DNA of 23,883 nt from a virus (Duplodnaviria > Heunggongvirae > Uroviricota > Caudoviricetes), in the IMG/VR virus record IMGVR_UViG_2563366840_000003; one strand, written 5' to 3'. Below the pieces are notes generated by a model. The model did no database searches. It was given only the letters and a program-made list of their open reading frames with translations, and was not told the origin of the DNA. Shown one piece after another: positions 19,268 through 23,883 of this stretch. Made by a program: the position numbers and the translations under genes. Each line of letters opens with the position of its first letter. Position 1 is the first letter of the stretch.

Positions 19268-19423
19268 TTACCTTTCAGATTCGTAGGCTGTGAAGACAGT
19301 GACCTCCGTCTGGCCGGTTCGGATTCGTACCTCGCAGAGGTCTTTCCTCGTTACCAGTGCCGTCACAATGACGGTTAAACAGATGACGATCAGAGCGATT
19401 AATATCGCTTTTTGCTGCTTCAT
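19268..19423 (-). CDS. hok: Hok/Gef-family type I toxin (51 aa)
   Basis: Codon-by-codon reading gives MKQQKAILIALIVICLTVIVTALVTRKDLCEVRIRTGQTEVTVFTAYESER, almost identical to E. coli HokD/RelF-type toxins as recalled. Below the ORF-track size cutoff. Confidence 0.85.
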   Translation of the reverse strand: MKQQKAILIALIVICLTVIVTALVTRKDLCEVRIRTGQTEVTVFTAYESER

Positions 19424-19481
19424 AGCCTGCTTCTCCTTGACCTTTTGGTCGGTAAGAGGCTAATCTACGTATGCTAAGCAT
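19275..19481 (-). CDS. mok: mok-like overlapping reading frame
   Basis: 68-aa ORF starting 58 nt upstream of hok and overlapping it out of frame, the arrangement known from hok/sok loci. Confidence 0.45.
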   Translation of the reverse strand: MLSIRRLASYRPKGQGEAGYEAAKSDINRSDRHLFNRHCDGTGNEERPLRGTNPNRPDGGHCLHSLRI

Positions 19482-19530
19482 AGATATTGCCTCAGATTAA
19501 TGTTAAGCGTCTTGCAGGACGCGTAATGTT
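19437..19530 (+). ncRNA. sok: candidate sok-like antisense RNA and promoter (boundaries approximate)
   Basis: Plus-strand TTGACC at 19437-19442 and a TAATCT-like -10 about 18 bp downstream would direct a transcript antisense to the mok start region; hairpin GCGTC-TTGCAG-GACGC at 19508-19523. Not independently verifiable here. Confidence 0.25.
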
Positions 19531-19757
19531 ATCTGGGGCTTTCTTCTATCTGCTTTTCGGGTAATGCCTGAAGCAGATAGCCTCAAGCACCCGCAATGAT
19601 TGTATCAATGTCTGGCTTTTTTTCTATAGAAATCACCGGGAAGGGTGAATATCCACATCAGAAGAAATGTTGCAGCAAACATGATCCCTAATGGCCAGAC
19701 CGCGCCAAAGAAAATCCATACTGAAAACGCCAGGTGACTCCAGATTAGAGCAATCTA

Positions 19758-21596: not shown

Positions 21597-22640
21597 TTAA
21601 CCTATTGCTACTGGTTTTAACAAACCAGCATCAAGTAGCTTGCGAGTTAACCACTGCTGGCCTTTACCCGTTAATTGGGGCGTCAGCCGTATCTGGTAGC
21701 CATTTTCATCATCCAGCACCACTTCTTTCACCGTGAAATACCCGGCGTTAATGTACTGCTGGCGCGGTACGTTTTTGCGCGCACCAAAAGCCATGAGAAT
21801 GCCGTTCTGGCGCAACCATGAGAAAAGGGCGTTTTGCTTAAGTCCAACGACCTTTGCAAAGTTCCCGATCAGGATTCCATTAGCCACTGATACCCGGTCG
21901 GCAAAATCGACTTTAGGGGCTGCGGCCACCAGCTGTTGTTCCAGCTGCAATTTCTGTTCTGCCAACTCGGCAGCCAGGCGTAGGGCTTCTGGTAATGTTT
22001 GGGGGATCGATGGGGTAGGGGAGTTTGCCTGCTGCAATTCTTCCAGTTTGTCGATCAGCGAACGGCGGACCGCTTTCGATTCGCGCGCGGCGACTCGCAG
22101 GGCTTGTTTGTAGGTCATGGTTATGACAACCATAGGCGTACCGCCACCTGGCGGCACGGTTGCACTTTTTGTGTAACCGTCCTCACCTTCTAATTCGTCG
22201 AGTATTTTTTCGATGAATTTGTTGTTCCGAACCTCTGGTTCCCCACATAACTTACGCGCTTCATTGACCATCTTTAACAGTGTCAGGCTGTCGATTGTGT
22301 CTCCGGTGGTGGGGATGACATTCACGGCTGGTGCTGGCGTTGCTGAAGCAACAGGTGCTGGTTTTTTAACATTCAAATTATTACTGGTCATTCTATGTGC
22401 CTCCTTTCTCATTTCTGCTGCCACCGTTGCGTAACGTAGACGTCCTTGTTCAATCAAATAATCCCTGATCTCGGCTATCAGTAGCCTGTTGATCACAGCC
22501 TTATCTGTTCGGGTATAAAAACGCCTGGTTATCATGAAATAGTTGGCAATTGCGCCGGGGATCTCCCGTGTCGGTATACAGGCAGTATGCAGGGCGATCG
22601 CTTCGGCTATGTCATTACGGGTGACGAGAGGTTTTTTCAT
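21597..22640 (-). CDS. ant: phage antirepressor (Ant-like) with KilA-type C-terminal domain
   Basis: 347 aa; the C-terminal domain is shared with the kilA product; the start codon overlaps the stop of a 73-codon upstream ORF (ATGA), as in icd-ant operons. Confidence 0.65.
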   Translation of the reverse strand: MKKPLVTRNDIAEAIALHTACIPTREIPGAIANYFMITRRFYTRTDKAVINRLLIAEIRDYLIEQGRLRYATVAAEMRKEAHRMTSNNLNVKKPAPVASATPAPAVNVIPTTGDTIDSLTLLKMVNEARKLCGEPEVRNNKFIEKILDELEGEDGYTKSATVPPGGGTPMVVITMTYKQALRVAARESKAVRRSLIDKLEELQQANSPTPSIPQTLPEALRLAAELAEQKLQLEQQLVAAAPKVDFADRVSVANGILIGNFAKVVGLKQNALFSWLRQNGILMAFGARKNVPRQQYINAGYFTVKEVVLDDENGYQIRLTPQLTGKGQQWLTRKLLDAGLLKPVAIG

Positions 22641-22858
22641 AAACCCCCCTGAACGTCGGCAGAGAAGGGGAGGCTCCAGTAACTAAGTGAATTGCGCGAG
22701 TTAGTTGAAAAACGGGCAGTAAAAATGCAGGGGCCATCAGGCAATTGAGAGCGTGCTTCGTCTTCAGTTGCTGCGATAACGAAGTGATAGTGGTGTTTTT
22801 TACAGGAATAGAAACGCCAGATGAATTCTGGGCGTGCGCAAGGATTGGCATTAACCAT
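22637..22858 (-). CDS. icd: Icd-like small protein (73 aa) translationally coupled to ant
   Basis: 73 codons, the length I recall for P1 Icd; TGA overlaps the ant ATG; the 22615-22851 ORF in another frame is rejected. Confidence 0.45.
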   Translation of the reverse strand: MVNANPCARPEFIWRFYSCKKHHYHFVIAATEDEARSQLPDGPCIFTARFSTNSRNSLSYWSLPFSADVQGGL

Positions 22859-23149
22859 AGTTACGGCCTCACAATCAGGTTTAACAACCTGCTACCCGCT
22901 GCTAAACAGGTGGCAGGACGTGACGGGGTTAGCAGACTGGCGATTGTGAAACCAGCAGGCCGAAGCCTCCCCATCACGCCCCACCATAATTTGGGCGTAA
23001 CGCGGTTTTACGGACACAAAAATACCGCAATATCGGATATCTGCGGCTGTCCGCACAATCATTCAGGCTGCTAAACCCGGTCGCAGAATTTGCTACGACG
23101 GCGGAACTATAAGCCTGAACGATTAAAAGGTCAATATGATGCGAAAAGA

Positions 23150-23189
23150 TAGCATTCGTGACTTAAAAATACAAATTTATTAGAGCATT
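23150..23189 (-). promoter_or_regulatory. C1-type operator (23173-23189) overlapping the -35 of the promoter for the icd-ant leader
   Basis: Minus strand reads AATGCTCTAATAAATTT, 16/17 to consensus; 17-nt spacer, TAAGTC at the -10 position. Confidence 0.5.
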
Positions 23190-23285
23190 ATCTGCCTAAT
23201 AAATACACAATTGGATCTAATAACCTCTTTTTTTTAAAGGCGAAAATATGTACCCTAAATGGGTTATAAGGCAGGTGAGGTTATA

Positions 23286-23417
23286 ATGAGAAAACTATTA
23301 CTATCGTTATTATTTATGGCTGGGACTGTTAATGCAGCATCAAGCGTAAAGGAGATTTGTACCGATTATACGAAATACCTTTGGCAAGTTTACGCCTTTG
23401 CGATCAATGACTATTAA
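23286..23417 (+). CDS. small secreted peptide (43-aa precursor)
   Basis: GGTGAGG RBS then ATG; MRKLLLSLLFMAGTVNA reads as a signal peptide ending in A-x-A, followed by a 26-aa mature part with one Cys. Below the ORF-track cutoff. Confidence 0.3.
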   Translation: MRKLLLSLLFMAGTVNAASSVKEICTDYTKYLWQVYAFAINDY

Positions 23418-23438
23418 TCCATGCGTAGGAGTGGATTT

Positions 23439-23606
23439 ATGCTGATTCGTTTGTTTTTAGTGCTTTCCTTTTTAACATTTAATGTTTTTGCTGATGAAGT
23501 TGACTTTTCGAAGGTAGATTGTAATTCAGTGGAAACAAGAAAAGCTCTTATTGAAGAATATAACGAAATATTATCGTCATATGGGGTAATGACTCCAACT
23601 TATTGA
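23439..23606 (+). pseudogene. small secreted protein gene whose 3' end is replaced by IS1 sequence
   Basis: AGGAG then ATG at 23439; MLIRLFLVLSFLTFNVFA signal peptide and a Cys-containing mature part; the last 7 codons and the stop come from the IS1 terminal repeat beginning at 23585. Confidence 0.35.
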
Positions 23607-23883
23607 TAGTGTTTTATGTTCAGATAATGCCCGATGACTTTGTCATGCTGCTCCACCGATTTTGAGAACGACAGCGACTTCCGTCCCAGCCGTGCCAGGT
23701 GCTGCCTCAGATTCAGGTTATGCCGCTCAATTCGCTGCGTATATCGCTTGCTGATTACGTGCAGCTTTCCCTTCAGGCGGGATTCATACAGCGGCCAGCC
23801 ATCCGTCATCCATATCACCACGTCAAAGGGTGACAGCAGGCTCATAAGACGCCCCAGCGTCGCCATAGTGCGTTCACCGAATA
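23585..23883 (-). mobile_element. insB: IS1 insertion sequence, right end with 3' part of insB; continues beyond the window
   Basis: GGTAATGACTCCAACTTATTGATAGTGT is the IS1 terminal inverted repeat; minus-strand translation ...[62 protein letters not shown]...HYLNIKHYQ matches the InsB C-terminus. Confidence 0.95.

Follow-up and report, generated by a model that had tools for sequence, protein, structure and literature searches.

A short open reading frame that overlaps the start of an antirepressor gene, preceded by a leader in which one 10-bp sequence occurs twice, raises the question of how the antirepressor is controlled. The pair lies in a Caudoviricetes record, of which a stretch of 23,883 nt (hereafter the window) was analyzed. 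A preliminary description had read this arrangement as a P1 c4-type switch, in which an antisense RNA gates icd-ant translation, and had left the RNA itself unmapped. The points to be settled are whether such an RNA is encoded, what the repeats do and which immunity specificity the leader carries. The c4-icd-ant switch of phages P1 and P7 has long been known and is already explained, and nothing new is likely in the window. It was among the first trans-acting antisense RNAs to be characterised (1990), is catalogued in Rfam and is annotated in both phage genomes.

We are nearly certain that the region corresponds to immI, the immunity operon, of a P1/P7-like plasmid prophage and that it has P7 specificity and a c4 antisense switch. 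The sequence anatomy, Rfam membership, fold, complementarity, identity to P7 and compensatory covariation described below are direct observations.

Coding region, operator and promoters

To delineate the operon, the window was aligned with the annotated regions of P1 (AF234172) and P7 (AF503408), and the P1 annotation was transferred. The operon genes are all encoded on the minus strand at the right end of the window:

22637..22858, minus strand: icd, cell-division inhibitor, 73 aa (open reading frame and homology to P1 Icd)
21597..22640, minus strand: ant1, antirepressor, open reading frame of 347 aa (P1/P7 homology and a Pfam domain)
22640..22637, minus strand: ATGA, in which the icd stop and the ant1 start overlap (open reading frame calls and sequence)
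22391, minus strand: predicted ant2 start, in-frame Met84 of ant1, preceded by AGGAGG (P1 annotation and sequence)

According to pairwise protein comparison, Icd is identical to P1 Icd at 71 of 73 residues (97%), and Ant1 shares 93% identity with P1 Ant1 and 91% with P7 Ant1. Ant1 also contains the ANT/KilAC domain (Pfam PF03374, E = 1.3e-30). No Pfam model matches Icd or either of the two proteins encoded upstream of the operator (SimA and a SimB fragment, see below), and all three were named by direct comparison with P1 proteins. The central segment of Ant1 (residues about 150-175) is unlike both P1 and P7.

The TGA of the 73-codon frame overlaps the ant1 ATG exactly as had been described, and the P1 annotation (AF234172) shows the same overlap (icd 1942-2163 and ant1 2160-3203 in the fetched P1 region). 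Translation of ant1 is probably coupled to that of icd through this overlap, the functional dependence being taken from the P1 annotation and literature. The Shine-Dalgarno sequence of icd, GAGG, is located at 22870..22867, and the icd ATG follows 8 nt further on, at 22858.

Upstream of the leader the alignment places an operator and two promoters:

23189..23173, minus strand: putative C1 repressor operator Op51 (Oc4), AATGCTCTAATAAATTT (column-for-column alignment with the annotated P1/P7 operator)
23175..23146, minus strand: promoter P51a (P2c4), -35 at 23175..23169 and -10 TATCTT at 23151..23146 (P1 annotation via the alignment)
23134..23106, minus strand: promoter P51b (P1c4), TTGACC, 17-nt spacer, TATAGT (corresponds to P1c4 of the P1 annotation)

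The sequences of all three are conserved with those annotated in P1 and P7. P51a, which overlaps the operator, is invariant in the window, P1 and P7 except for one spacer base (23159), which is A in the window and P7 and G in P1. P51b was found independently by a consensus promoter scan (10 of 12 matches).

Repeats in the leader

The repeated sequence, GCTGCTAAAC on the plus strand, is present in exactly two copies in the whole 23.9-kb window (22898-22907 and 23067-23076), just where the preliminary description had put them. Since it was noted in plus-strand orientation and the operon is on the minus strand, its RNA form reads GUUUAGCAGC. The functional core of both copies is the conserved 7-mer UUAGCAG. 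A second pair of repeats, with the core GAUUGUG (23060..23054 and 22876..22870), had gone unnoticed, as had the complements of both repeat pairs, which sit between the copies. The four target sites are as follows:

23074..23068, minus strand: a1 target UUAGCAG (P1 a1 homology; exact complement of a'; covaries with a' in 11 elements)
23060..23053, minus strand: b1 target GAUUGUGC (P1 b1 homology; 7 of 8 bases pair with b')
22905..22899, minus strand: a2 target UUAGCAG (P1 a2 homology; covaries with a')
22876..22869, minus strand: b2 target GAUUGUGA (P1 b2 homology; exact 8-nt complement of b')

The two b sites differ at the 8th base (C in b1, A in b2), and b2 covers the first two bases (GA) of the icd Shine-Dalgarno sequence. 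The role of a1/b1 is labeled only as 'putative' in the P1 annotation (AF234172).

Short two-copy repeats often arise by chance, and the same 650 nt contain many more two-copy families of 8-11 nt, so the 10-bp repeats might be regarded as a chance duplication or a relic devoid of function. Against this, the exact 10-mer is expected only 0.01 times in the window, two or more copies were obtained in none of 100 shuffles, and the two copies fall on the sites annotated as a1 and a2 in P1. The behavior of the repeats across alleles, presented below, is the decisive evidence on this point.

A near-copy of the a target, GGGUAGCAG, is found directly 3' of a2 (22889..22897, minus strand). It complements the a' region at 8 of 9 bases and is kept in P1, whose a2 itself differs.

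C4 antisense RNA

The entire window was scanned with Rfam models at their gathering thresholds. Two of the matches fall within the leader:

22991..22906, minus strand: C4 antisense RNA, RF01695 (69.6 bits against a gathering score of 45; E = 6.4e-12; model positions 1-87 of 87)
23112..23060, minus strand: c4-a1b1 motif, RF03163 (55.5 bits against a gathering score of 46.7; E = 1e-11)

Both models belong to clan CL00128, and both match at full length and above their gathering scores, the window showing no notable difference from either family. As the RF01695 match lies between the two repeat copies, it locates there the RNA that had remained unmapped. The mature RNA and its two effector segments are as follows:

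22985..22909, minus strand: mature C4 RNA, 77 nt (ends transferred from the c4 misc_RNA annotation of P1 and P7)
22949..22942, minus strand: b' effector UCACAAUC (C4 nt 37-44; lies in the hairpin loop of the predicted fold, 9 nt, nt 36-44)
22935..22929, minus strand: a' effector CUGCUAA (C4 nt 51-57, the whole 7-nt unpaired junction of the predicted fold)

The minimum free energy fold of the 77 nt has an energy of -44.9 kcal/mol (z = -5.73). It consists of a long closing stem and an internal hairpin, with b' exposed in the loop and a' left unpaired. Complementarity is exact over 7 nt between the effector a' and each of a1 and a2, and over 8 nt between b' and b2.

The preliminary description had suggested that one repeat copy is the target and the other the effector, the latter being carried by a hairpin-bounded RNA of about 75 nt. 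A structured RNA of nearly that size is indeed encoded in the leader. It carries neither repeat copy, however: mature C4 ends at 22909, 2 nt short of the copy that contains a2. Since a' is the exact reverse complement of both repeat cores, both copies are targets (a1 and a2), and the effector is the complementary segment between them.

Unconstrained RNAduplex calculations of whole C4 against its targets were discarded, as they opened the C4 stem and returned unrealistically long duplexes; exact loop complementarity was used instead. When the leader is folded unprocessed, the minimum free energy structure retains the C4 stem, and the flank of a1 is paired with the spacer separating a2 from b2. 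These two segments (23064..23077 and 22878..22891) are 14 nt long and 86% complementary; the spacer differs in D6-type alleles.

Direct repeats in phage immunity regions can be operators, and the C1 operator is nearby (23189..23173). It might thus be argued that the repeats are protein sites, operator or iteron-like, rather than RNA targets. Yet they do not resemble the C1 operator, and a third, inverted copy coincides with an unpaired segment of C4, a structured RNA whose score exceeds its Rfam threshold. Moreover, a change of the repeats from AG to GA is accompanied by the matching change in the complement. Such concerted change of repeats and complement is the signature of RNA-RNA pairing, and we rejected protein binding as a very improbable explanation of the repeats.

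Covariation of targets and effectors

To see how targets and effectors vary, we aligned positions 22840-23120 of the window with ten further records, giving 11 hand-picked P1/D6-like elements. Nine of the alleles belong to phage D6 or to E. coli plasmids chosen across the identity ranking. Two types of a and four types of b occur among the 11 elements, in five combinations:

a type AG with b type P7 (the window and P7)
a type GA with b type P1
a type GA with b type D6
a type AG with b type D6
a type AG with a fourth b type, GUACAUG

In each of the 11 genomes a1 and a2 are identical to each other and to the reverse complement of a'; b1 and b2, over their seven-base cores, stand in the same relation to b'. 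Pairing is found in 100% of cells in both sets, that is, for a'-a2/b'-b2 as well as for a1-a'/b1-b'. Double-sided changes affect 8 pairs in the 11 elements; for b2-b' double changes are seen in 6 of 8 pairs and for b1-b' in 6 of 7. The covariation score is 0.53-0.57 compared with 0.21-0.23 in shuffles, and was reached by none of 500 shuffles. Displacing the partners against each other by 1-3 columns lowers pairing to 24-46%. The repeats thus covary with their complement a' across alleles, which refutes the reading of them as a chance duplication or a functionless relic. We rejected that reading and assign it next to no probability at all.

The D6-like plasmid prophages (MF356679 and related E. 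coli plasmids) have the same c4 stem and the same places for a1/b1 and a2/b2 upstream of icd. They differ in their b allele (ACUUACG), in the promoter-proximal region and in having a Roi-like antirepressor gene downstream of icd.

Two wide scans were run with a degenerate c4 pattern. The scan of IMG/VR viral contigs returned 0 matches and that of one-genome-per-species contigs returned 1, and the allele survey therefore consists of the 11 hand-picked records and this one distant copy. The latter comes from a metagenome-assembled genome labeled Achromobacter (3295-3737 of the fetched region), with a' CUGCAAA and b' CUUUUAC. Its a and b elements are unrelated in sequence to those above, and nevertheless each is present in two matching copies, the second b lying at GGAG before an ATG. 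Such different and still matched elements constitute strong independent evidence for a mechanism based on RNA-RNA pairing.

All three copies of each element have changed in step, and so the pairing of a1/b1 with C4, too, would be under selection. If true, possible roles for a1/b1 would include those of a decoy acting in cis, a guide for processing and a site of autoregulation. The natural series of C4 specificity alleles further suggests that there are more immI immunity classes than those of P1 and P7. The combined proposal, namely that a and b are two independently reassorting modules, that a1/b1-C4 pairing is selected and that the immI classes outnumber the two known from P1 and P7, is a tentative one, and we would sooner doubt it than assert it.

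Immunity specificity

According to Citron and Schuster (1990), whose work is summarised in PMC12197685 and PMC8198154, ant is blocked by C4 acting as an antisense RNA, and the heteroimmunity of P1 and P7 rests on this RNA; PMC6906374 likewise summarises heteroimmunity via C4. The P1 immI region (AF234172) and the window are built alike, with the promoters, the operator, a C4 of 77 nt and translational coupling in common. The P7 immI region (c4-icd-ant1/ant2, AF503408) has the gene order and the ATGA overlap in common with it.

The specificity elements tell P1 and P7 apart. No base separates the window from P7 over the whole interval that begins with the C1 operator and reaches the icd start codon. 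They share a1/a2 TTAGCAG, a' CTGCTAA, b1 GATTGTGC, b2 GATTGTGA and b' TCACAATC. Over the same interval P1 departs from both in all six elements (a1, b1, b', a', a2 and b2) and also at seven further positions scattered outside them. Every specificity element of P1 differs from that of the window, by 2 positions per a and 2 per b, and these changes are always compensatory, so that pairing is kept. Thus, P1 has the alleles a = UUGACAG and b = GUUAGUG with matching a'/b', whereas the window has the P7 alleles UUAGCAG and GAUUGUG.

The flanks of this interval are less uniform. Megablast of positions 22560-23300 against phage records gave a P7 match of 99.2% over 628 nt, from query position 114 onward, and a P1 match of 95.7% over the full length of the 741-nt query. 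Upstream of the operator P7 has upf50.5 and upf50.0, whereas the window has a P1-type simA and an IS1-truncated simB. Ant1 is 347 aa long in the window compared with 348 aa in P7, to which it is 91% identical with a divergent central segment. A P1-type specificity, or some new one, could be argued from these features, since the SimA homolog is 92% identical to P1 SimA, the whole query aligns with P1 and only from position 114 with P7, and Ant1 is slightly nearer to P1 (93%) than to P7. However, all six specificity elements equal those of P7 and differ from those of P1, and the stretch from the operator to the icd start is the same in the window and P7. A specificity other than that of P7 was accordingly rejected as very improbable.

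Judged by its sequence, the immI allele of the element is P7-type and not P1-type. The proposed P1 c4-type switch gating icd-ant therefore stands as a c4 switch, on the strength of the Rfam matches and the identity to P7, but not in its P1 attribution. Carrying the P7 alleles, the element is expected to be heteroimmune to P1; its class predicts, at the immI level, immunity to P7-type and sensitivity to P1-type superinfecting phages. Overall, the element is a mosaic, in which a c4 leader identical to that of P7 adjoins a P1-like simA side.

Proposed mechanism

In the scheme that the layout suggests, leftward transcription of the minus strand from the tandem promoters P51a and P51b would produce an RNA that contains, in this order, a1-b1, c4, a2-b2, icd and ant1/ant2. 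By analogy with P1 and P7, the 77-nt C4 would be cut from the same operon transcript. Hartmann et al. reportedly found in 1995 that the C4 precursor of P1 and P7 is a substrate of RNase P, which makes the 5' end of C4; the precursor sequence in the window is the same as in P7. The b' segment in the hairpin loop and the a' segment in the junction of C4 would then pair in trans with b2 and a2 upstream of icd. Because b2 is located at the icd Shine-Dalgarno sequence, ribosomes would be unable to load once it is paired with C4, and icd would remain untranslated. The ant1 start lies inside the icd stop, so ant1 expression would in turn depend on icd translation. Untranslated icd RNA of P1 is said to have been found by Biere, Citron and Schuster in 1992 to be prematurely terminated, in a Rho-dependent manner, within icd. 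With the translation of icd and ant1 blocked, Ant would be absent and the C1 repressor would stay active. Active C1 would maintain both lysogeny and superinfection immunity.

RNA processing, the translational block, polarity and termination, and the function of Ant would all proceed here as in the published work on P1 and P7. As regards the dependence of ant on icd, the P1 annotation (AF234172) describes icd as 'apparently required for expression of ant', and a passage of PMC8198154 also has ant expression depending on icd translation. The sequence itself holds no argument against the c4-switch reading.

Occurrence and genomic surroundings

Plasmid records with the leader number at least 579, and in 170 of these the identity is 99% or higher. 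The E. coli plasmid NZ_CP061756.1 matches positions 22560-23883 of the window at 99.9% over 1324 nt, including the IS1 junction. Its record has icd and ant annotated and no c4 gene. For the window, the gain in annotation is the placement of the C4 RNA gene, of a kind that protein-centered pipelines omit.

Divergent from c4 is the sim superimmunity operon (23259..23883), which is interrupted by IS1:

23259..23417, plus strand: simA-like open reading frame (identity to P1 SimA as given above)
23421..23606, plus strand: simB open reading frame, whose match to P1 SimB (111 aa) is limited to residues 1-56 of that protein, followed by IS1
23600..23866, minus strand: IS1 transposase fragment (Pfam DDE_Tnp_IS1)

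The simB/IS1 junction also occurs in NZ_CP061756.1. The interruption of the sim operon by IS1 shows that the prophage has undergone rearrangement, which has left c4-icd-ant and its promoters intact.

At the opposite end, the first 1500 nt of the window (1..1500) gave no megablast match to P1 or P7, and matches begin at 1502. This segment contains an open reading frame with a phage tail collar domain (281..796, minus strand; Pfam PF07484). Three tRNA genes follow on the minus strand, as is expected in P1-like phages:

1760..1835, minus strand: tRNA-Met (CAT)
3267..3342, minus strand: tRNA-Thr (TGT)
3345..3420, minus strand: tRNA-Asn (GTT)

Finally, a toxin-antitoxin module of the hok/sok type (19268..19592, minus strand) is located just downstream of repL:

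19592..19418, minus strand: sok RNA (RF01794, 114 bits)
19423..19268, minus strand: open reading frame for a Hok-like membrane peptide of 51 aa
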